Positions 37,045 through 61,866 of a DNA stretch of 64,000 nucleotides are shown one piece after another (the stretch's first letter is position 1; the number at the start of each line of letters is the position of its first letter). The stretch comes from Bacteroidales bacterium. GTDB taxonomy: Bacteria; Bacteroidota; Bacteroidia; Bacteroidales; UBA1402. Made by a program: the position numbers and the translations under genes. Below the pieces are notes generated by a model, which was not told where the DNA came from, made no database searches, and saw only the letters and a list, made by a program, of their open reading frames with translations. Location: contig JAFUIP010000007.1 of assembly GCA_017468435.1 (NCBI GenBank), positions 33,762 through 97,761 on the forward strand, read 5' to 3'.

Positions 37045-38586
37045 ATGGATTTGAGCGGTATTAAAAACATTGTTTTCGATTTTGGCGGCGTTCTGGTAAA
37101 CCTCAATCAGCAAGCCTGCATGGACGAACTCACACGCCTGGGCGTTCCCAATATCGAGGATTATCTCACGGCTTACGGCCACGTGGGTATTTTTGGCGCA
37201 TTCGAAAACGGCGATGTGGATCTGCCCACTTTCTGCCGCGGCGTGCGCGAACAATTTCATCTCGATTGCGAAGATATCGACGTAGAGAATGCTTGGGCAA
37301 AGTTTCTGGAAAACATTCCATACAAAAAACTGAAATTGGTGTACGCCTTGTCGAAGAAATATCGCATTTTCATTTTGAGCAACACCAATCCCATTCATAT
37401 CAAGAGTTTTGCGCTCTTCGATCAGGCTGGATTTCCCTATAAGGAATGTGTGGAAAAGCCCTATTATTCTTTCCAGATTCATCATTCTAAGCCGAGTTTG
37501 GAGATTTTCCGTTATGTTACCGACGATGCCGGCATCTTGCCGGAAGAAACGCTTTTGGTAGATGATAGCCCCAAGAATTGTGCCGCAGCGGCCAGTTTGG
37601 GATGGAAAACCTATTGTCCCGGCACTTCCGAAGATTTTTGTGAAGATCTTTTCCCCGAAGAAACCGCCTACATTATGAGTCGCGATTTCCAAGCGCCTCC
37701 TTTTCAGGCTTGTGTGGCTACCATGGGCTTTTTCGATGGCGTACACAAAGGACATCAATTCCTGATAAACGAGTTGCAGACCTTGGCCGACAAAAAACGA
37801 ATGCCTTCTCTGTTGCTGAGTTTCTGGCCACATCCACGCAAGGTTTTGCAGAGCGATTATTGTCCCAGTCTGCTTTCCTCTTGCGAAGAAAAGAGCGAAC
37901 GCTTGCATCATAGCCTGGCCGACAAGGTGGAAATGCTGCCCTTTACCACGGAAATGGCCGATATGACGGCCCGCGAATTCATGGAAAAAATCTTGCGAGA
38001 TCGTTATCATGTGCGTTGTCTGCTTATGGGTCACGATCATCATTTTGGCAAGAATGGCAAGAGTGAATCTTTCGAAGATTATCAGCGTTACGGCGCCGAA
38101 TTGGGCATAGAAGTCTTGCGCGCGGAGCCTTATTGTCAGGATGATGTCTTGCTCAGTTCTTCCTATATCCGTCGTTGTTTGCAGGAAGGTCGCATCAAGC
38201 AGGCCAATGAGGCTTTAGGTTATGCGTATTCTTTGGAAGGCGTTGTGTCAGAGGGTTATGGCAATGGTAAAAAGATGGGTTTTCCTACGGCTAATCTGTG
38301 CCTTTCAGACGATAAACTTGTTCCGGCTCGCGGGGTGTATGCAACTCGCGTTCAACTTGACGGACAGACATATCGCGCCATGCTCAACATAGGTACGCGT
38401 CCCACTTTTTGCCAGGACGACACATGCAGCATCGAAGTGCATATTCTTGATTTCGAAGGTGATATTTATCAGAAGAAACTTCGTGTGGAATTCTTGCAAT
38501 ATTTGCGTGAAGAAAAAGCTTTTGCCTCGGTAAGTGATTTGCAGGCGCAATTGGCCGAAGATCGCAAACAAATCAGTTCGATGTAA
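37045..38586 (+). CDS. ribF: Fusion protein: HAD-superfamily phosphatase plus bifunctional riboflavin kinase/FMN adenylyltransferase
   Basis: N-terminal ~200 aa: 'IVFDFGGVLV' (motif I), 'LSNTN' (motif II), 'VDDSPKNCAAA' (motif IV). The remainder is RibF: 'ATMGFFDGVHKGHQFL', 'FWPHPR', 'GFPTANL', 'MLNIGTRPTF', 'VHILDFEGDIY'. Confidence 0.8.
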   Translation: MDLSGIKNIVFDFGGVLVNLNQQACMDELTRLGVPNIEDYLTAYGHVGIFGAFENGDVDLPTFCRGVREQFHLDCEDIDVENAWAKFLENIPYKKLKLVYALSKKYRIFILSNTNPIHIKSFALFDQAGFPYKECVEKPYYSFQIHHSKPSLEIFRYVTDDAGILPEETLLVDDSPKNCAAAASLGWKTYCPGTSEDFCEDLFPEETAYIMSRDFQAPPFQACVATMGFFDGVHKGHQFLINELQTLADKKRMPSLLLSFWPHPRKVLQSDYCPSLLSSCEEKSERLHHSLADKVEMLPFTTEMADMTAREFMEKILRDRYHVRCLLMGHDHHFGKNGKSESFEDYQRYGAELGIEVLRAEPYCQDDVLLSSSYIRRCLQEGRIKQANEALGYAYSLEGVVSEGYGNGKKMGFPTANLCLSDDKLVPARGVYATRVQLDGQTYRAMLNIGTRPTFCQDDTCSIEVHILDFEGDIYQKKLRVEFLQYLREEKAFASVSDLQAQLAEDRKQISSM

Positions 38587-39457
38587 TATCCACTTGTTCT
38601 TCCAATGCTTCGATTTCCTCTTGCATCGACTTCAGGTAGTGCTGTTGGATGAAAATTGTGGCGATCAGGACGAAAATGACCAAAGCTAGTGTAAAACCGG
38701 AAATGCAGAGGAATAAATTTCTTCTGAATCTGATGTCGCGCAGGGCCTCGTCGGCGTTGAGATATCGGTTTTCAGGAAGTTCTTGTGTGCATTTTTCCAG
38801 GATTTTCCGAAGGTAATGCGGTTGTCTTCCCTGACATTTTTCCTGAATGTACAACATAATTTTTCCAACGGCATAGATATCGCTACGCGCATCGAATTTC
38901 TCTCTGTTCTTGCTTTGCAATTCGGGAGCGGCAAATTGCGAATTGGTGCCGGCGGTATATCCGTAATGGTCTTCAAAGCAGAATCCTAAGTCGATAATCT
39001 TGACGTCGTTGTTTATCTGGGTGATAAGAATGTTGTCGGGCTTCAAATCGAGGTATGCCACGTGTTTATCGTGCAAGGCTTTCAGTCCCTTCATCAATTG
39101 GATGAAGAATTTTCTAAGGTGTTTTGTCTTGCGGAAATATTTCGGGTCCTTGGCGATTTTCTCTTCCAACGTGAGTCCGTTGATATGCTCCAGCAGCAGG
39201 TAAATGCCTTTCTCGTTCTCGTTGAGCGATACATATTTGACGATGTAGTCGCTTTCGATGCGATTTCCTACTTCGAATTCCTTGTGGAACATTACCCGAT
39301 AGCGCCAGTTGTCTTTGTGTTCGGGGCGGAGTTGCTTCATGAAGTAGTCTTTGCCTTTAAGACGCACCCGATACGACAAGGATGTCGAGCCTTGTCTTTG
39401 CAGCAATTCTACTTTTTCGAACTGTTCCGAAGTGTGGATGAAGTCGGATGCCAGCAT
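38573..39457 (-). CDS. Ser/Thr protein kinase-like protein, non-RD type, C-terminal TM anchor
   Basis: 'FMKQL' (beta3 Lys), 'YLDLKPDNILI' (catalytic loop with YLD in place of HRD), 'DLGFCF' (DFG-like) and 'AAPE'. TM 'LFLCISGFTLALVIFVLIATIFI' near the C-terminus. Confidence 0.7.
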   Translation of the reverse strand: MLASDFIHTSEQFEKVELLQRQGSTSLSYRVRLKGKDYFMKQLRPEHKDNWRYRVMFHKEFEVGNRIESDYIVKYVSLNENEKGIYLLLEHINGLTLEEKIAKDPKYFRKTKHLRKFFIQLMKGLKALHDKHVAYLDLKPDNILITQINNDVKIIDLGFCFEDHYGYTAGTNSQFAAPELQSKNREKFDARSDIYAVGKIMLYIQEKCQGRQPHYLRKILEKCTQELPENRYLNADEALRDIRFRRNLFLCISGFTLALVIFVLIATIFIQQHYLKSMQEEIEALEEQVDITSN

Positions 39458-39481: not shown

Positions 39482-40060
39482 TTATTGCTTGGTTATCAGG
39501 TATTTAATTCCGTTTTCTTTACCGCAGACATAGTTACATGGCGCGCCTCCTTTGTGAATGAGGCAAGACAGGAACAGCGGCTCGTTCTCGATGAATTGTC
39601 CGCAACGGAAGGTGTCTTTCTTGCAAAGTTTGCTATTGATGGATTCAAGTACGGTGAAGAGCTCGTGGCCTTCGTAGCGTATCAGTATGCTGCGGTCGGG
39701 ATTCCACTTAATGCGTATTTCTGTGCCGACTCTGAGTGAATTGGCATACAATTGGTTGTTGAGGATGAAATCGCTCTCGATGGAATTGGTCTGGCTCGAA
39801 TATTGAAGGAAACTTTCCCAACCGGTGTATCCGATTAACTGAGAAAGAATATTGAGCGTGTCCAAACGAGGTTGTCTGATATTCTTTTTACCCAGATAAC
39901 CCCAGAATCTTTTCAGCGTCATGGCGCTGATGGTGTCTTTTGTTTTATCGTAAATGCACATGGAGAGATAATCGAAATCTCGCGGCGTGTGCATATTTCT
40001 TCCTACGGTCATCTCTACGGAAGGCCGTAGAGATTCAAACACAATTTCAGTATTATCCAT
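39482..40060 (-). CDS. Hypothetical 192-aa protein, first gene of the kinase operon
   Basis: Intact ORF with its own promoter box. The N-terminal segment 'MTLKRFWGYLGKKNIRQPRLDTLNILSQLIGYTGWESF' resembles a small helical module seen at the N-termini of diverse Bacteroidota proteins. The C-terminal domain is unrecognised. Confidence 0.5.
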   Translation of the reverse strand: MDNTEIVFESLRPSVEMTVGRNMHTPRDFDYLSMCIYDKTKDTISAMTLKRFWGYLGKKNIRQPRLDTLNILSQLIGYTGWESFLQYSSQTNSIESDFILNNQLYANSLRVGTEIRIKWNPDRSILIRYEGHELFTVLESINSKLCKKDTFRCGQFIENEPLFLSCLIHKGGAPCNYVCGKENGIKYLITKQ

Positions 40061-40127
40061 CCTTTTTTTGTTATCGTTCTTGTTATTGAATGGTCTCTTT
40101 GTTAAAGAGGCAAAGGCGATGAAGTTG

Positions 40128-40135
40128 CAAAAATA
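40128..40135 (-). promoter_or_regulatory. -7 promoter box (TATTTTTG on the minus strand) for the 192-aa/kinase operon
   Basis: Exact TAnnTTTG match, about 68 nt upstream of the ATG at 40060. The leader contains a CTCTTT/AAAGAG hairpin. Confidence 0.4.
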
Positions 40136-40189
40136 GTTAATGGAATGGAAAAATCTGTAGAAAAATGTTAAAGTGTACCAAAATGTACC

Positions 40190-40234
40190 AATTTAAAAAT
40201 AAAATAAGCAGCTACAACATCGTTGTAACTGCTT
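40190..40234 (-). terminator. Rho-independent terminator of tRNA-Val
   Basis: 13-bp stem (AAGCAGUUACAAC / GUUGUAGCUGCUU, one G-U pair) followed by a U-rich tract on the minus strand. Confidence 0.7.
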
Positions 40235-40241
40235 GATTGTG

Positions 40242-40316
40242 TGGGCGCTGACGGATTCGAACCGCCGACCCTCTGCTTGTAAGGCAGATGCTCTGAACCA
40301 GCTGAGCTAAGCGCCC
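40242..40316 (-). tRNA. tRNA-Val (anticodon TAC)
   Basis: The reverse complement folds as a cloverleaf: acceptor GGGCGCT/AGCGCCC, anticodon arm TCTGC-CTTACAA-GCAGA, T-arm GGCGGTTCGAATCCGTC. CCA is not encoded. Confidence 0.9.
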
Positions 40317-40343
40317 TAAGTGTTTTTCTTTCGAAAAGCGGTG

Positions 40344-40351
40344 CAAAGATA
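40344..40351 (-). promoter_or_regulatory. -7 promoter box (TATCTTTG on the minus strand) for tRNA-Val
   Basis: Exact TAnnTTTG match, 28 nt before the tRNA 5' end. This is the same spacing as at the other tRNA. Confidence 0.5.
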
Positions 40352-40433
40352 CGGCTAATTTTTATATCTGCAAATTATTTGATGATTTTTTTGAAAAAAA
40401 TTCCGTTTTTGGGGTTGGAAGAAGTCGTTTTTG

Positions 40434-40654
40434 AGGTTTGCACTAATTTTCTCAGCCCTTTGGGCCTCGCAATCAAACCTTGCTATTAGGTTTGCACTAA
40501 TTTTCTCGTCGCTCCGCGCCTCGCAATCAAACCTTGCTCTTATTAGGTTTGCACTAATTTTCTCAGCCCTTTGGGCCTCGCAAACAAATCTTCTTTCGAA
40601 GTTTGCACCAATTTTCTCGGTACTTCGTACCTCGCAAATTAGGCTGCACCTCGG
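40434..40654 (+). repeat. Tandem repeat family A: four units of 54-57 bp (GGTTTGCACTAATTTTCTC + short GC hairpin + CTCGCAA...)
   Basis: Direct reading. Units start at about 40434, 40488, 40545 and 40599. A fifth partial copy forms the purB promoter at 41026..41046. Confidence 0.85.
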
Positions 40655-40708
40655 AAAAACAAAATCGACAACTTGCTTTTATTTCTCCATCTTCTCGCTT
40701 CGATAAAG

Positions 40709-40982
40709 TTTGAAGCAAGAAGCTTCCTTCTATATTTCAGCCTCTGTAAAAACTTGAAGCAAGAGGCTTTTTGCTATATTTCAGCCTCTATAAAAAGCCT
40801 GAGGCAGGCTTTTCGCTATATTTCGCCTCAATAAAGCCGATAGCAAGCTATCTGCTTTATCTTCGGCTTCAATATAGCAAGCTATCCGCTTTACCTCGGC
40901 TTCAATGTAGCAAGCTATCGCTTTATATTCGGCTTCAATATATCCTGATAGCGACTATCGCTTTATATTCGCTCGAATCTGG
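40709..40982 (+). repeat. Tandem repeat family B: about seven degenerate units of 33-46 bp (hairpin + GCT(A/T)TAT(A/T)TTC(A/G)GCCTC(A/T)ATA-like tail)
   Basis: Direct reading. Units start at about 40709, 40754, 40800, 40839, 40877, 40910 and 40947. Confidence 0.8.
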
Positions 40983-41034
40983 AAAATAAAACTTGTTTTA
41001 TTTTGTTCTCCGCTCGGTTTGCACTAATTTTGTA

Positions 41035-41042
41035 CCCCTATT
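41035..41042 (+). promoter_or_regulatory. -7 promoter box (TAATTTTG) for purB
   Basis: Exact TAnnTTTG match, 28 nt upstream of the ATG at 41070, embedded in a family-A repeat head. Confidence 0.5.
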
Positions 41043-41069
41043 TATACAAGGTATATTAATAAGCTTATT

Positions 41070-42416
41070 ATGATGAATTTGAATTCTTTGACTGCCATTA
41101 CTCCCGTTGATGGAAGATATCGCAGTAAAACCGAGGCTCTGGGTAATTATTTTTCTGAATACGCCCTGATTCGTTATCGCGTCCGCGTCGAAGTGGAATA
41201 TTTTATTGCATTGTGCGAAATGCCTCTGCCTCAACTAAAAACCGTTCCCGTAGATCAGTTGGAATCTTTGCGCGACATTTATCGTCATTTCAGTTTGGAC
41301 GATGCTCAGCGCGTGAAGACCATCGAAGCTACCACCAATCACGATGTGAAGGCCGTGGAATATTTTATCAAAGAAGCTTTCGATCGTTTGGGCCTGGCTG
41401 AATACAAGGAATTCATTCATTTCGGATTGACTTCGCAAGATATCAACAATACTTCTGTGCCTTTGTCTATCAAGGAGGCTTTGGAAGATGTGTATTATCC
41501 TGCTTTGCAAGAACTTATCGATTGCTTGGATGCTTATGCGAATGATTGGTCGGATGTGGCTATGTTGGCAAAAACCCATGGTCAGCCGGCTTCTCCCACG
41601 CGTTTGGGTAAGGAAATCAAGGTGTTCGTGTATCGTCTGAACGAGCAGTTGGTTTTGCTCAAACAATTGCCATTCTCTGCCAAGTTCGGTGGTGCTACCG
41701 GAAATTTCAATGCGCATCATGTGGCTTATCCCAACGAAAATTGGCCTGAATTCGGTGCAAAGTTCTTGTCGGAAAAATTAGGCTTGAAGCGCGAAATGTA
41801 CACTACGCAGATTTCTAACTACGATAATCTGGCTGCCATTTTCGACGGCATGAAGCGTATCAACACCATCGTGAAGGACATGAACCGCGACTTCTGGATG
41901 TATATTTCCATGGAGTATTTCAAGCAGAAGATCAAAGCTGGCGAAGTGGGTTCGTCGGCCATGCCTCATAAGGTGAATCCCATCGACTTTGAAAATTCGG
42001 AAGGTAACATCGGCGTAGCCAACGCTTTGCTCGATTATCTGGCTTCGAAATTGCCCGTTTCTCGTTTGCAACGCGACCTTACCGACTCTACCGTGCTTCG
42101 TACCATCGGTATGCCTTTTGCGCATTCGCTCATTGCTTTCACCAGCAGCTTGAAGGGCTTGAAGAAGCTCTTGCTCAACGAAAAAGCATTGCAGGCCGAC
42201 TTGGAAAATCACTGGGCAGTGGTGGCCGAAGGTATCCAAACCATTTTGCGTCGCGAAGCTTATCCCAATCCTTACGAAACCTTGAAGGCTTTGACCCGTA
42301 CCAACGAGGCTATTACGGAAGAATCAATTGCTGCATTTATCGAAACTTTGGATGTTTCAGAGTCTGTGAAGGCCGAGTTGCGCAATATCAAGCCCGATAC
42401 TTATACCGGAATGTAA
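41070..42416 (+). CDS. purB: Adenylosuccinate lyase
   Basis: 'LTAITPVDGRY', 'TSQDINN', 'HGQPASPT' and the fumarate-lyase signature 'GSSAMPHKVNP'. Confidence 0.95.
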   Translation: MMNLNSLTAITPVDGRYRSKTEALGNYFSEYALIRYRVRVEVEYFIALCEMPLPQLKTVPVDQLESLRDIYRHFSLDDAQRVKTIEATTNHDVKAVEYFIKEAFDRLGLAEYKEFIHFGLTSQDINNTSVPLSIKEALEDVYYPALQELIDCLDAYANDWSDVAMLAKTHGQPASPTRLGKEIKVFVYRLNEQLVLLKQLPFSAKFGGATGNFNAHHVAYPNENWPEFGAKFLSEKLGLKREMYTTQISNYDNLAAIFDGMKRINTIVKDMNRDFWMYISMEYFKQKIKAGEVGSSAMPHKVNPIDFENSEGNIGVANALLDYLASKLPVSRLQRDLTDSTVLRTIGMPFAHSLIAFTSSLKGLKKLLLNEKALQADLENHWAVVAEGIQTILRREAYPNPYETLKALTRTNEAITEESIAAFIETLDVSESVKAELRNIKPDTYTGM

Positions 42417-42457: not shown

Positions 42458-43840
42458 ATGACAACAGACAACGAAAAATGGCAGGGAAAGCCTGAGGAAG
42501 GTGCCTACAATGCCGGCCGTGAAGGTAATGATTTCCGTAGCAGCTACGGTAGAGAAAGAAGTTTTGATCGTCCCAGACGTAATTTCCGAGAAGGTGGAGA
42601 ACGCTCTTTCGGCGAACGTTCATTTGGTGGTGAACGTCGTCAGCACAATGGAGAACGCTCTTTCGGAGAACGCAGAAGTTTCAACAACGACCGTCCGCGT
42701 CGTAATTTCAATAATGAAGGTGGCGAACGCTCCTTCGGAGGCGAACGTTCTTTCAACAAGGAACGCTCTTTTGGTGGTGAACGTCGTCAGCACAATGGCG
42801 AACGCTCATTTGGAGGTGAACGCTCTTTTGGAGAACGCAGAAGTTTCAACAACGATCGTCCTCGTCGCAGCTTCAACAACGAAGGTGGTGAGCGCTCATT
42901 CGGCGGTGAACGTTCTTTCAACAGAGAACGCTCTTTTAATGGCGAACGCTCATTTGGTGGTGAACGTCGTCAATACAATGGTGAACGCTCATTTGGTGGA
43001 GAACGCAGAAGTTTCAACGGCGATCGCCCTCGTCGTCCCAGAATCGGTGGCAAGAAAGAGAATCCCGAATGGCTGGCCGAAAACAATTTCAAGGCTCCTA
43101 AATATGCGCCCAACCTCGATCCGACAACGCCTATCCGCTTGAACAAATTCTTGTCGAATGCAGGTATTTGCTCACGCCGCGAAGCCGACGAATATATCCA
43201 GGCCGGTGTGGTAAAAGTGAATGGCGAAATCGCTACTGAATTGGGTGTTAAGGTAATGCCTACCGACGAAGTGATGTTCCACGATCAGCCCGTGCGCATC
43301 GAACGCAAAGTGTATGTGTTGCTGAACAAGCCCAAGGATTGCGTGACTACTTCCGAAGATCCTCAAGAACGTCTTACCGTAATGGATTTGGTGAAGAATG
43401 CTTGCTACGAACGTATTTATCCCGTAGGTCGTCTCGACCGCAATACCACCGGCGTGCTGCTCCTTACCAACGATGGTGACTTGGCATCGAAACTGGCTCA
43501 TCCCAAGTACGAAAAGCGTAAAATTTACCAAGCTACCCTCGACAAGGATCTGCCTCAGGAAGTGATGGACGAAATTGCCAAGGGCGTGGATTTGGAAGGT
43601 GAAATGATTGCCATCGACGAAATCAGCTATGTGAACGAAAAGCCCAATGTGATTGGTTTGGAAATTCACTCAGGACAGAATCGTGTGGTTCGTCGTATTT
43701 TCGAAAAATTCGGTTACAAAGTGTATAAACTCGATCGCGTCTATTTTGCAGGTCTGACCAAGAAGAATCTTCCCCGCGGAAAATGGAGACATTTGACAGA
43801 AAGAGAAGTTGGTTTGCTTAAAATGGGCGTATTTGCATAA
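42458..43840 (+). CDS. rluB: RluB/RsuA-family pseudouridine synthase with a ~195-aa repetitive Arg-rich N-terminal extension
   Basis: S4 domain 'IRLNKFLSNAGICSRREADEYIQAGVVKVNG', catalytic 'VGRLDRNTTGVLLLTNDG' and 'KIYQATL'. Confidence 0.85.
   Translation: MTTDNEKWQGKPEEGAYNAGREGNDFRSSYGRERSFDRPRRNFREGGERSFGERSFGGERRQHNGERSFGERRSFNNDRPRRNFNNEGGERSFGGERSFNKERSFGGERRQHNGERSFGGERSFGERRSFNNDRPRRSFNNEGGERSFGGERSFNRERSFNGERSFGGERRQYNGERSFGGERRSFNGDRPRRPRIGGKKENPEWLAENNFKAPKYAPNLDPTTPIRLNKFLSNAGICSRREADEYIQAGVVKVNGEIATELGVKVMPTDEVMFHDQPVRIERKVYVLLNKPKDCVTTSEDPQERLTVMDLVKNACYERIYPVGRLDRNTTGVLLLTNDGDLASKLAHPKYEKRKIYQATLDKDLPQEVMDEIAKGVDLEGEMIAIDEISYVNEKPNVIGLEIHSGQNRVVRRIFEKFGYKVYKLDRVYFAGLTKKNLPRGKWRHLTEREVGLLKMGVFA
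42548..43042 (+). repeat. In-frame coding repeats inside rluB: 14 'ERSF' and 3 'RRSF' micro-units arranged in three larger blocks, each ending in NDRPRR/GDRPRR
   Basis: Counted in the translation. DRPRR occurs at residues 37, 78, 133 and 189. Confidence 0.85.
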
Positions 43841-46174: not shown

Positions 46175-47837
46175 ACGCCTTGTTTTCATGCTATTGGCCT
46201 TGCTGATGCTTGGATTGGTTTCTTGTGCCGGCAGCCGGAATGTGGCTTCTTCGAAATCTGCGGCTCCTGCAGCTCCTGCGAGTTCGGTTTCGAGTTCTGC
46301 GAGTTCGGTTTCGAGTTCTGCGTCGGCCACTTCTTCAGCGTCGCTTGCTGCTTCAGCGTCTTCTTCGCTTGCTTCTGCGAATTTTGCAGAGCATCTTCTT
46401 CCGAAAACGGAGTTTCTTCCTCCGAAAACGGAGTTCCGCGGCGCGTGGATTAGCACCATCAACCAGACTAAGTACGCTCAAATGAGCGACTTCCAGATGA
46501 TGCTTTACTTCGAGAATTTATTAGATTCTTTGCAGTCGGCCGGCATCAATGTGGTCTTGTTTCAAGTGCGTCCGCAATGCGATGCCTGGTATAAATCGTC
46601 CTACGAGCCTTGGAGTTGTTTCATTACCGGAAAACAAGGCAAGAATCCGGGTTGGGATCCGCTGTTTTATCTTACGGAGGCTTGCCATCGACGCAACATG
46701 GATATTCATGCTTGGATCAATCCTTATCGCGTGAAGCTGACGGTGAAAGAATCCGATTACAAAGAGCCTTTCGTGCGCAAGTATCGTCATCTGATGGTAA
46801 AGTATGGACGCAGCCTTTGGTTGGATCCCGGATTGCCTGAGTCTCAACGACATATCTTGAGGGTGGTGCGTGAAATCGTGCGCAATTACGACATAGATGG
46901 CATTCACATGGACGATTATTTCTATCCTTATCCGCTGGCCGGCCAGGCTTTTCCTGATGATAAAAGTTTTGCAAAATATGCTGCATCTCAGGGGTTTACC
47001 TCTTCTCAGAAAGCCGATTGGCGTCGTCACAATGTCAATACTTTGGTGCGCGATTTGCATAAAGTCATTCGCGAAGAAAAGCCTTGGGTTCGTTTCGGCA
47101 TCAGTCCTTTCGGCATTCATCGCAATCTGAAGCAAGATCCCGATGGCAGCAAAACCAATGGTTTGAGCAACTACGACGACCTCTATGCCGATGCGCTCAC
47201 TTGGATGCGCGAAGGTTGGATTGATTATTGTATTCCGCAGATTTACTGGGAAATAGGTCATCCGGCAGCCGATTATACCACGCTTTTGGAATGGTGGGCC
47301 AATCATACTTTTGGCGCGGCTTTGTATATAGGTCAGGATGTGGCTCGAACTATGAAACCGCATCAGCTCAGTGAAAAAATGTCGCAGGCGCGTGCGCAGT
47401 CTAATGTCTTGGGCAACTGCTTCTTTCCGGCTTATGAATTAGAAGCGAACGCTGGCGGCGTGGTCGATAGCTTACGGCGTGATTGGCATACTTATCCGGC
47501 CTTGGTTCCCGCCGACAACAGAGATTTTCATGTTCAGCCCGAACCTGTTTATTCGCTTGATGTTCATTCTGATTATCAGAAGGGTACGCATCTTGCATGG
47601 AAAACGGTTCGTAGTAAAAACGAAATGAAGAAGCCCTCGTATTTTGTGGTGTATCGTTTTCAGCAAGGCAAAGCGGAGAATCTTCAAGATCCGCGAGCCA
47701 TTGTCGGAATTTGTCGGCAGCCTTTTTTTAGTTTTCCACCGCATCCTCACAAGGGCAATTGGGTCTATCATGTGACTGCTTTCAATCGTCTTCACCAGGA
47801 AAGTGCCAGCGAGCGAATCGTTATCAGTGTGCAATAA
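46164..47837 (+). CDS. Lipoprotein of the GH10-like/UPF0748 (YddW/DigH-like) glycosyl-hydrolase family
   Basis: Lipobox 'GLVSCAG', a Ser/Ala-rich linker, then 'FRGAWISTI', 'NVVLFQVRPQCDAWY', 'HAWINPYR' and 'DGIHMDDYFYP'. The start overlaps the rnz stop by 11 nt. Confidence 0.7.
   Translation: MSGKRLVFMLLALLMLGLVSCAGSRNVASSKSAAPAAPASSVSSSASSVSSSASATSSASLAASASSSLASANFAEHLLPKTEFLPPKTEFRGAWISTINQTKYAQMSDFQMMLYFENLLDSLQSAGINVVLFQVRPQCDAWYKSSYEPWSCFITGKQGKNPGWDPLFYLTEACHRRNMDIHAWINPYRVKLTVKESDYKEPFVRKYRHLMVKYGRSLWLDPGLPESQRHILRVVREIVRNYDIDGIHMDDYFYPYPLAGQAFPDDKSFAKYAASQGFTSSQKADWRRHNVNTLVRDLHKVIREEKPWVRFGISPFGIHRNLKQDPDGSKTNGLSNYDDLYADALTWMREGWIDYCIPQIYWEIGHPAADYTTLLEWWANHTFGAALYIGQDVARTMKPHQLSEKMSQARAQSNVLGNCFFPAYELEANAGGVVDSLRRDWHTYPALVPADNRDFHVQPEPVYSLDVHSDYQKGTHLAWKTVRSKNEMKKPSYFVVYRFQQGKAENLQDPRAIVGICRQPFFSFPPHPHKGNWVYHVTAFNRLHQESASERIVISVQ
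46278..46435 (+). repeat. Two in-frame 21-bp tandem duplications within the lipoprotein linker
   Basis: GCGAGTTCGGTTTCGAGTTCT x2 (46278..46319) and TCTTC(T/C)TCCGAAAACGGAGTT x2 (46394..46435). Confidence 0.85.
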
Positions 47838-52873: not shown

Positions 52874-52998
52874 GGTTGTTTTTTATAAGGATATTGGTCG
52901 CAACAAAGATAAACGCCCGGTACGCCCAAACGCAAACACTTTCAGTTCATAATATTTCCTTAAAAGAAATATTTTCAACTTAAAAGAAAGAGTATTAG

Positions 52999-53030
52999 TT
53001 TGTTATCTTTATAAAACTTGTGTACCTTTG
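52999..53030 (+). promoter_or_regulatory. Canonical Bacteroidota promoter (-33 TTTG at 52999..53002, -7 TACCTTTG at 53023..53030) for the Abi gene
   Basis: Both elements are present, separated by a 20-nt spacer. Confidence 0.55.
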
Positions 53031-60238: not shown

Positions 60239-61866
60239 TTGCGCGAGTGGCTCAAGTGATTGTAGTGCAAGATCTTTTCGGTGCAAATGCCAGTGTCGAG
60301 GCCGCGTGCTTGCGCATAAGCCTGAGCCATGATGCGCAATTTGTCGTCGCTCACGTGGAAGCGGTCGAAGTTGGCGCAGGCCTGCTCGAGCGAAACTTTG
60401 CCGAAGCGCATGCGGTTCAAATCGAGCAATTCTAATTCGCAAGTCGCTTCTTCGCTTATGCGAGTTTCCATTTCCGAGAATCGGCTTTCGTTCGTGAAAC
60501 TCACTAAAATATTGCCACCGGAATAATCTTTGTGGTAAATACCTGCTTCGTGCAGTCGTGCCGTCAAAGCGCCGACAGCCTTCAGAAAGATTTCTTGTTG
60601 CTTGGCATCGAGTTTGTCAATGTCTTTGAAATGAATCGTTTTTTGCGAAGCTTCGCAGACATAATAACTCTTGTCGAAACAAAGTCCGCAGCGTTCTTGG
60701 TAAAACGCCACCGGACGAGGCGTCAGAATGCCGAGACGAAGCAATTTGTCGGCGTATTCGTATGAGCGTTCAGCCTTAGATTTGCGCAGGAATCCGTAGA
60801 TGATGCGGTTCACCCAATTGGGCTTTCGGAAAGATTTTACCACGTAGCTGTTTCCGTCTATCTCGAAGCTTCTCAGTTCGTTACGACCTTTGTAAATGAC
60901 ATTGCCTTTGTTGTATTTGAATTGCCGGGGCAAGCTTTTGACGAAAAATGCCAAGTGCTCTGCCTTCTCTTTGTTGAGCGAATCAGCGGGCGAGGCATCG
61001 GAAACGGTGGCAGGCGCGGCATCGGAAACGACAGCAGTTGCGGCATCGGAAACGGCGGTAGGCACGGCATCGGGATGTATGCGCCACTTGCGCGGATGCA
61101 GGCAACGATGACAAATATTCAGGAACTTCGACCACGAACGATGATAATGAAGCGGGCCGCCCAATTGGGCTTCGTAAAATTCGGGATGAAGTTCGTTCAG
61201 TTCTTCAATGAGTTTGTGTTTGCGGCTTTGTGTAGCCCTGCGCTTGGAATTGGCATGCACACGATAATAGAAACCCAGCATTGGCAGACGATAAAAGCCT
61301 CCTTTTCCGTTTTTGAACATGGAAATCCAGAAGGCCCAATCCTCGCGACCTTTGATATGTTCGGCATATCCACCGCAAGCTTCCCAATCGCTTTTGCGAT
61401 ACATGGCACAGTTGTCGATCATGTTCTTACGCGCCAGCATGGGCAGGCTGAAAGGCGCAAAATGCATGGGACCCGATTTGTCGCCGCAGTATTCCACCTC
61501 GCAACTCACCACTTTCACTTCGGGATGCGCGTCTAAGTACTCGGCCGCCGCTCTGATATAGCCCAGCGTGATATTATTGTCGGCATCTACAGGCAGGATG
61601 TAAGGGCCTTGCGCCAAACGAATGGCGTGGTTGCGTGCAGCAGAGGCTCCGGCATTGGCTTGCGAAAACACTTTGATTCGTTCGTCCTTTTCGGCAAATG
61701 TGCGGGCAATGTGTAAAGACTCATCTTTCGAACCATCGTCCATCAAGATGATGTCGAAGTTTTCGTAGTCGGAGGCCAAAACGGAAGTGATGGTCTCGGC
61801 TAAGTAGCGTTCCATATTGTAAATGGGCACCACCACGGAAACATGTGTAGGATAAGTCTTTGCCAT
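60235..61866 (-). CDS. Fusion protein: family-2 glycosyltransferase plus lipopolysaccharide-kinase (Kdo/WaaP-like) domain
   Basis: N-terminal part: 'VSVVVPIYNMERYL', 'FDIILMDDGSKD', 'ILPVDADN'. C-terminal part: 'VVKSFRKPNWVNRIIYGFLRKSKAERSYEYADKLLRLGILTPRPVAF' and 'GIYHKDYSGGNILV', 'LLDLNRMRF'. A repetitive linker joins the two. Confidence 0.65.
   Translation of the reverse strand: MAKTYPTHVSVVVPIYNMERYLAETITSVLASDYENFDIILMDDGSKDESLHIARTFAEKDERIKVFSQANAGASAARNHAIRLAQGPYILPVDADNNITLGYIRAAAEYLDAHPEVKVVSCEVEYCGDKSGPMHFAPFSLPMLARKNMIDNCAMYRKSDWEACGGYAEHIKGREDWAFWISMFKNGKGGFYRLPMLGFYYRVHANSKRRATQSRKHKLIEELNELHPEFYEAQLGGPLHYHRSWSKFLNICHRCLHPRKWRIHPDAVPTAVSDAATAVVSDAAPATVSDASPADSLNKEKAEHLAFFVKSLPRQFKYNKGNVIYKGRNELRSFEIDGNSYVVKSFRKPNWVNRIIYGFLRKSKAERSYEYADKLLRLGILTPRPVAFYQERCGLCFDKSYYVCEASQKTIHFKDIDKLDAKQQEIFLKAVGALTARLHEAGIYHKDYSGGNILVSFTNESRFSEMETRISEEATCELELLDLNRMRFGKVSLEQACANFDRFHVSDDKLRIMAQAYAQARGLDTGICTEKILHYNHLSHSRK
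60994..61074 (-). repeat. 24-bp in-frame tandem repeat (about 3.4 copies) encoding the inter-domain linker (..AVSDAA..)
   Basis: GGCATCGGAAACG... recurs at 60994, 61018, 61042 and 61066 on the + strand. Confidence 0.85.

Follow-up and report, generated by a model that had tools for sequence, protein, structure and literature searches.

Promoters of the Bacteroidetes sigma-A factor follow the consensus TTTG at -33 and TAnnTTTG at -7, and an alternative class, SM5, carrying a TAnnTTGY box has been described in Flavobacterium psychrophilum (PMC9723704). Intergenic sequence near bacterial promoters may also carry repeats of several described kinds. Variable-number tandem repeats (minisatellites) of promoter regions are made of head-to-tail copies whose number differs among close relatives, while REP/BIME and REPIN mosaics are strain-variable intergenic mixtures of imperfect palindromic units in direct and inverted orientation. 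Families of promoter reuse, also called putative mobile promoters, place near-identical upstream sequence, as far as the core promoter, before non-homologous genes (Matus-Garcia, Nijveen and van Passel 2012; PMC3575422). Finally, hairpins can be created and maintained by replication template switching, one event of which may introduce compensatory changes at several bases at once (PMC8794818), and in E. coli mutations concentrate at imperfect inverted repeats (PMC7202029). The locus analysed here is best read as a combination of three of these known kinds: a variable tandem repeat of a promoter region, a mosaic of palindromes and a product of template switching.

The window, by which we mean the whole 64,000-nucleotide stretch of a Bacteroidales genome that was analysed (part of ENA contig ERZ28018926 k141_331463), contains a gap of 753 bp between tRNA-Val(TAC) and purB, and repeats fill everything between the divergent promoters of these two genes (Table 1). 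An earlier note on this DNA had described four tandem units that open with the head of the purB promoter, and this description holds. Family A comprises four units of 54, 57, 54 and 55 bp at 40435-40654, each opening with the 16-nt core of the purB promoter, GGTTTGCACTAATTTT, of which the copy in the fourth unit is degenerate and a fifth copy lies in the promoter itself. Tandem Repeats Finder reports 40429-40638 with a period of 54 and 3.8 copies (79% matches, score 248), or alternatively with a period of 111 and 1.8 copies. The head GTTTGCACTAATTTT occurs five times in 64 kb, four times in the array and once at 41017-41031, against 0.36 occurrences expected by chance, and the array unit plainly copies the core of the purB promoter. 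In the linker of unit 1, CAAACC is complementary to the next head; at the other end of the array the tail of unit 4 is an inverted copy of the head, so that this unit folds as a two-tier hairpin, with a covariance model match of 55 bits. The feature is real and more elaborate than first described, and it is not a fixed regulatory array.

Table 1. Features between tRNA-Val and purB and in the surrounding sequence, with positions in the 64-kb window
Feature	Position	Strand	Evidence or remark
Ser/Thr kinase-like gene	38573-39457	-	294 aa; called 255 aa in strain L089
192-aa gene adjoining the kinase-like gene	39482-40060	-	no Pfam domain
tRNA-Val(TAC)	40241-40316	-	ARAGORN; Rfam tRNA, 72 bits; transcribed away from the array
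tRNA-Val promoter, TTTG-N19-TATCTTTG	40344-40374	-	pattern match
91-codon TTG-initiated ORF across the array	40431-40706	+	judged non-coding
Family A unit 1	40435-40488	+	head GGTTTGCAC+TAATTTTC (box 40444-40451), mini-hairpin GCCC-TTT-GGGC 40455-40465, linker
Family A unit 2	40489-40545	+	box TAATTTTC 40498-40505; core GTCGCTCCGCGC 40508-40519, the same as that of the single unit of L089; mini-hairpin G.CGC-TCC-GCG.C 40508-40520
Family A unit 3	40546-40599	+	box TAATTTTC 40555-40562; core AGCCCTTTGGGC 40565-40576, identical to the unit 1 core; mini-hairpin GCCC-TTT-GGGC 40566-40576
Family A unit 4 (terminal)	40600-40654	+	degenerate head AGTTTGCACCAATTTTC, box CAATTTTC 40609-40616; core GGTACTTCGTACC 40619-40631, mini-hairpin GGTAC-TTC-GTACC 40619-40631; tail AAATTAGGCTGCACCTCGG 40636-40654
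A/T-rich hairpin after the tail (GGAAAAAC...TTTCTCC)	40653-40692	+	in every lineage, with differing inner stems
Family B hairpin repeats, 44 bp x3	40705-40835	+	repeat finding; terminator-like matches
Family C hairpin repeats, 33 bp x4 (GATAGCAAGCTATC palindromes)	40829-40971	+	repeat finding; inverted relative to family B
A/T palindrome AAAATAAAAC-TT-GTTTTATTTT	40981-41012	+	right arm holds the purB -33 TTTG
purB promoter, TTTG-N19-TAATTTTG (box 41025-41032)	41002-41032	+	includes the original head, 41016-41031; pairs with the tail in the large palindrome
Perfect 12-nt palindrome AATAAGCTTATT	41055-41066		separated from the purB ATG by 3 nt; conserved in L089, L100 and L209
purB (adenylosuccinate lyase)	41070-42416	+	Pfam Lyase_1, ASL_C
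RluB-like pseudouridine synthase gene	42458-43840		S4 and PseudoU_synth_2; N-terminal GERSFGGERSFN-type tandem repeat
Repeat within the RluB-like gene	42628-43035		165-bp period, 2.5 copies
Short tandem repeats, 21-bp units (46258-46435)	46276-46322 and 46394-46435
Tandem repeat, 20 bp x2.1 (AATATTTYC..TTAAAAGA)	52951-52989		setting akin to that of the purB array
Divergent promoter-consensus matches flanking the 20-bp repeat	52904-52936 (-) and 52999-53030 (+)
Tandem repeat, 24 bp x3.5	60989-61073

Comparison with the sigma-A consensus separates the purB-proximal head from its copies. This head has the full consensus and the array heads copy its -7 region, but they fail the consensus in two respects: as the note had observed, their boxes end in C and not in G (TAATTTTC three times and CAATTTTC once, against TAATTTTG at purB), and no TTTG lies 18-21 nt upstream of the -7 box of any array head in 40300-41100. 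In the same interval the pattern TTTG-N18-21-TAnnTTTG matches only the promoters of tRNA-Val and purB. With neither the terminal G nor a spaced -33 element, the proposal that the array is a set of regulated promoters is unsupported. The distance from the end of the purB box to the ATG is 37 nt and not 28 nt as had been stated. On the minus strand, the reverse complement of the tail (40636-40660) reads TTTG-N18-TAATTTGC, in this clade only; it fits the SM5 TAnnTTGY box and could act as a minus-strand promoter towards tRNA-Val.

Directly repeated units with an internal hairpin are the second element of the description, and here the earlier account needs some revision. The mini-hairpins of units 1, 3 and 4 are as reported, but the stem of unit 2 is weak, with only three contiguous pairs. 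Seven distinct cores were collected from the window and its relatives (AGCCCTTTGGGC, GTCGCTCCGCGC, GGTACTTCGTAC, GGCACTTCGTGC, GCCCCTGCGGGC, GTCCCTGCGGGGC and AGTCGCTTCGCTCC), and six of them form a stem of 4-5 bp, the core of L100 being poor. Among eight distinct unit sequences from the window and four relatives, 77% of cells in the mini-helix are paired against 64% in shuffles (1 of 500 shuffles was as high), and three of its five pairs show change on both sides. The claim that pairing is preserved is borne out, and the pairing extends to an outer helix between head and tail. The mini-hairpin makes up the inner tier of a larger hairpin, in whose outer tier the head CACTAATTT pairs with its inverted copy AAATTAGGCTGCA, that is, TGCA-CTAATTT of the head with AAATTAG-GC-TGCA of the tail (40636-40649). 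Three double changes distinguish the outer helix in L100, where TAATTT/AAATTA has become TATCTT/AAGATA (two pairs) and a T-A pair C-G (one). For both helices together (16 pairs, ten sequences), 92% of cells are paired and 6 of the 16 pairs show change on both sides, a figure reached in none of 500 shuffles. With so small a sample of related sequences, these figures are an indication and not proof. When the register is slid, only 23-46% of cells pair.

Symmetric changes of this kind are also found in the neighbouring repeats and in the A/T hairpin that follows the tail. In the stem of family B, GCTTG/CAAGC has changed to GCCTG/CAGGC between strains that are 97-98% identical, and in the family C palindrome GATAGC/GCTATC has changed to GACAGC/GCTGTC. 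G-U and A-C mismatches show no strand preference. The earlier note had reasoned that plain decay of a minisatellite cannot explain preserved pairing; this overlooks template switching, by which compensatory changes arise in one event (PMC8794818). Products of template switching at quasipalindromes share with the present region the inverted copy of a neighbouring sequence, symmetric arm changes that include adjacent bases, and the expansion of palindromes (PMC8794818, PMC7202029). The purB region differs in that it involves tens of bases and several nested layers, and in that the process is deduced from comparison of sequences.

That no standard feature type accounts for the array, as had been said, is supported by searches with Rfam and Pfam, which return nothing for it, and by the ORF, which matches only other array ORFs. 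In a permissive Rfam scan of 39500-41500 only the tRNA passes, all other matches having E > 0.1 and lying far below the gathering threshold. A covariance model built for the two-tier hairpin (R1) was run over the 64-kb window and 408 kb of other Bacteroidales loci and recovered no site beyond those on which it had been trained. The mini-hairpins are unlike intrinsic terminators, since they are followed by CTCGCAA with no T run; terminator-like flags fall only on the unit-junction hairpin and on the B and C hairpins. The region shows neither the DnaA boxes nor the switch in GC skew that would mark a chromosomal replication origin. When compared by eye, the ATTAGGC of the repeat lacks the essential G of the GTTRRRY core of integron attC sites, and the core stems are unrelated to their flanks, unlike the footprints of transposon excision. 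CTnDOT-type elements have GTAnnTTTGC as target; again by eye, the variable core is not adjacent to it. All three of these candidates were set aside.

The pairing does not end with family A. Family B is an inverted version of family C, and the single-strand fold of 40630-41036 joins the tail with 41019-41030, the left with the right arm of the A/T hairpins, and B units with C units. With the tail pairing to the purB promoter across families B and C, this whole interval is one large imperfect palindrome (z = -5.4; none of 100 shuffles was as stable). A local alignment of the tail with the reverse complement of the promoter region scored 26, while shuffled sequences scored 15.1 +/- 2.5 and at most 26; taken without the fold of the whole region, it is only suggestive. 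The purB box reads TATCTTTG in both L100 and the 97% relative L094, and so in L100 the promoter box, the upstream heads and the tail have changed together.

These observations bear on the possibility that the array acts through the structure of its DNA. Hairpins or cruciforms extruded by supercoiling might control access to the purB -7 box, hiding or exposing it, or serve to buffer supercoiling, or the crippled boxes might act as decoys for RNA polymerase holoenzyme, with unit number tuning the effect. Negative supercoiling accumulates between divergent promoters, and the array lies between two such promoters, while the related cassette of contig L087, described below, adjoins a divergent gene; the purB promoter forms one arm of the large palindrome, the tail can pair with the upstream head as well as with the promoter, all three having changed together in L100, and the lack of strand bias between G-U and A-C mismatches is as expected for a constraint at the level of DNA. 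Nevertheless the proposal is purely inferential, copy number and B/C content vary freely, and relatives do without the element, and we therefore consider such a role quite unlikely. In the form of a protein operator it is further opposed by a variable loop of 5-21 nt and by covarying half-sites; an operator was judged unlikely with the same half-site spacing and the joint change of both half-sites in L100 in mind. An invertible segment (inverton) was also rejected. The tail and the purB head make an imperfect inverted repeat; all five lineages have the same B-then-C orientation, with no inverted variant seen, and no recombinase gene is adjacent.

Comparison among relatives proved informative on how the array changes. 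Relatives were gathered through purB homologues and their contigs, and a protein search with the array ORF added two more arrays; the neighbouring 192-aa gene, used as a query, brought no new array alleles. The window has four family A units with hairpin cores in the order a-b-a-c, together with three B and four C units. Five independent assemblies of the same species (L089-L093, 97-98% DNA identity in flanking genes) have a single unit with core b, which consists of the head, the unit-2 core and the unit-4 tail and follows upstream sequence identical to that of the window; they have three C units against four, and their family B changes are clustered. All these single-unit alleles were assembled from short metagenomic reads, a procedure in which repeats may be collapsed, but two different assemblers agree on them. 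Another strain of the species, L208, has two units with cores c-a, the first of which equals unit 2 of the window apart from its core. At least three units of 96 bp, with three new cores, are present in L209 (GCA_017628325.1; purB 96.9% identical), and at least two in L100 (purB 96% identical), where the contig ends inside the array and there is no B unit and one C unit. In relatives whose purB is 91% identical or less the array is absent; tRNA-Val still adjoins purB there and the promoter sequences are unrelated. When purB was compared with a genome collection, the best among the matches listed were 71-75% identical and came from several Bacteroidales families, and the head was found in none of the purB loci among the matches listed; the Prevotellaceae kinship assumed in the earlier note is accordingly only presumptive. 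Among the sequences compared, then, the array is confined to a narrow clade, within which its length varies freely. Many short-read contigs (L002, L003, L094-L099 and L205-L207) break in or beside the array, for example at the unit-3 head or 56-59 bp upstream of purB. The region is thus an assembly breakpoint in the species and its relatives, and such copy numbers are provisional pending long reads.

The earlier note had held that its view would be weakened if the array were absent or freely variable in close relatives and the hairpin were not conserved. The first part is what we find, with one, two or four copies within the species and no array at 91% purB identity or less, whereas the second is not, hairpin pairing being kept. 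Head-to-tail units of 54-57 bp, a copy number that differs among conspecific strains and neighbouring families B and C that vary too are all characteristic of promoter-region variable-number tandem repeats. The purB units are set apart from these by being copies of the gene's own promoter core and by a hypervariable palindromic core of 12-14 nt between homogenised flanks, three such cores recurring in different orders (a-b-a-c in the window, c-a in L208 and b in L089). Elsewhere in the window, orthologues of the RluB-like gene among relatives are 424, 427, 460, 466, 470, 472, 474, 486 and 502 aa long, and this variation in length marks its repeat as an in-frame variable repeat.

The same comparisons bear on the 91-codon ORF. 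It is open, as had been reported, the unit lengths in the window as noted there are multiples of 3, and ORFs were called over arrays in two other assemblies, all of which might suggest a repeat peptide. However, the ORF has no Pfam match or other protein family, databases of 5.8 and 1.8 billion proteins return array ORFs only, and one of those returned runs antisense through the tRNA gene. Moreover a 13-nt core in L209 shifts one unit to another frame, the ORF has only 37 codons in the one-unit strain, and it is missing from the genes called on the source contig. The chance that a peptide is encoded is vanishingly small.

Although the array itself is restricted in distribution, a related cassette was found at other Bacteroidales loci by a metagenome scan for two heads 30-55 nt apart, which returned five contigs, all pre-selected by that pattern. 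In four of the five, a head, tail, hairpin and head lie directly upstream of other genes; in L086 there is the head only. The cassette precedes an LptF/G-like permease gene in L084 and L085, with four and two identical 66-bp units respectively, a GT2 glycosyltransferase gene in L088, and another gene, beside a divergent gene, in L087. The best named relatives of the glycosyltransferase gene are from Muribaculaceae, and one cassette-bearing contig is probably of that family. Identities between L088 and the window are 43/53 (81%), 31/36 and 30/34, comparisons made between different genomes and on pattern-selected contigs; the yardstick for putative mobile promoters is an identity of at least 80% over at least 50 nt before non-homologous genes. 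The most conserved segment across genomes is GGCTGCACCTCGG, and the peculiarities of the tail (the GC bulge and CCTCGG) are common to the window and the other cassettes. The final base of the upstream box is A or C in L087 and L088 and G in L084. Scans of viral contigs with tail and head gave 82 loci, all of them chance matches with no extended similarity.

Such a distribution recalls putative mobile promoters, in that highly similar upstream sequence, reaching to the core promoter, stands before non-homologous genes, and a small propagated promoter element, of that type or resembling a MITE, could have landed upstream of purB and been amplified locally. The cassettes end at the -7 box before purB and before each of the other genes named above, and the difference in the number of identical 66-bp copies between L084 and L085 is in keeping with this. 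In contrast to putative mobile promoters, however, the matches to the purB cassette are between metagenomic genomes and not within one, and the shared stretches are of 35-55 nt. The 64-kb window holds a single locus and some 400 kb (408 kb) of purB loci from other Bacteroidales hold none, no target-site duplications, transposon-type terminal inverted repeats or nearby transposase are seen, and all five contigs were chosen by a pattern demanding two heads. We regard an origin by such movement as quite unlikely, while noting that a propagated cassette is compatible with any of the other readings, whether neutral repeat, short transcript or DNA structure. REP/BIME and REPIN mosaics likewise share with the region its intergenic mixture of palindromic units, direct and inverted and variable among strains, but the purB array is a single locus in 64 kb, is not abundantly dispersed in the available data, and lies upstream of promoters and not at the 3' ends of genes.

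The position of the tail in these cassettes also raises the possibility of a transcript. Each head might be the weak promoter of a short non-coding RNA, with the mini-hairpin as 5' stabiliser, that runs through the conserved AAAUUAGGCUGCACCUCGG and ends at the A/U-rich or family B hairpins; the array would then multiply the 5' module of a small RNA gene co-regulated with purB. In L084, L085, L087 and L088 the tail begins 4-6 nt past the -7 box, roughly where transcription would start, and in L084 it forms the start of the downstream gene's 5' UTR. In every lineage the tail is followed by a hairpin with a U-rich 3' side whose differing inner stems covary, terminator-like sites on the plus strand are enriched in the region (8 found, 1.6 expected), and GGCTGCACCTCGG is the part best conserved across genomes. 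Against this, the boxes of the heads terminate in C without a spaced -33 upstream, Rfam offers no matching family, and covariation is seen in an outer helix that includes the head, a part that an RNA of this kind would lack. Both the window and L089 have weak A/T hairpins (-4 kcal/mol, z = -0.7 to -1.4), values taken from single-sequence folds because RNAalifold was uninformative on the tail and A/T hairpin, where indels misalign the hairpins. On balance a short RNA is unlikely, but it deserves to be kept in mind.

The explanation that we favour, with about an even chance of being correct, is that the array is a promoter-derived, hairpin-prone and copy-number-variable repeat produced by slippage and template switching, which at most modulates expression. 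It would represent a copy-number-variable derivative of the purB promoter, set among the nested palindromes that separate the divergent promoters of tRNA-Val and purB. The basic cassette appears to have the order head, small hairpin, tail, A/T hairpin and head. Given that the head is the -7 region of a promoter and the tail its inverted copy, this layout is direct-inverted-direct. The order resembles that of tandem inversion duplications in Salmonella. Slipped or unequal pairing of short homologies between the end of the tail, ATTAGGCTGCAC, and the start of the head, GGTTTGCAC, could add or remove units of 54-57 bp, and exchange between units could shuffle the cores, as the shared cores in differing orders suggest. 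Complementarity of the stems would come mainly from replication template switching, a known mechanism by which a change in one arm is copied onto the other, and selection on a structured product need not be invoked for it. The homologies at unit junctions, the free gain and loss of units, the shuffling of cores and the frequency of symmetric changes at very low divergence seem to fit best with a process at the level of DNA. As the upstream heads are crippled copies of the promoter, ending in C and without a spaced -33, the array is probably dispensable and at most tunes DNA structure or promoter output.

Several observations nonetheless sit less easily with a purely neutral repeat. At least one unit with a paired core is present in all five lineages whose purB is 96% identical or more, and the C-ended box is found throughout, which hints at some constraint. 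At least three core alleles persist across strains despite the homogenised flanks, where simple concerted evolution predicts otherwise. The cassette with the same tail features before unrelated genes suggests an element that may be conserved or propagated. In view of the persisting paired unit, the maintained core alleles and the conservation of the tail across genomes, the transcript and DNA-structure explanations remain alongside the one preferred here. These same features would be accommodated if the cassette were a functional, propagating, promoter-associated element of Bacteroidales, in which the inverted copy of the -7 box must stay complementary and its pairing, as a supercoil-driven DNA hairpin or a short upstream RNA, gates the promoter. 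Amplification, to between one and four copies at purB and between two and four at another gene, would then be a heritable and reversible tuner of expression. We think this improbable.

If slippage and template switching are indeed responsible, the purB locus would be a clean natural example of how these processes build nested palindromes from a promoter. Covariation, commonly accepted as proof of a functional RNA, would in that case have arisen without a structured product, and this calls for caution in scans for structured RNAs. A functional cassette, on the other hand, would amount to a hitherto undescribed element, linked to promoters and present in several gut or rumen Bacteroidales, in which changes of copy number could tune housekeeping genes such as purB.
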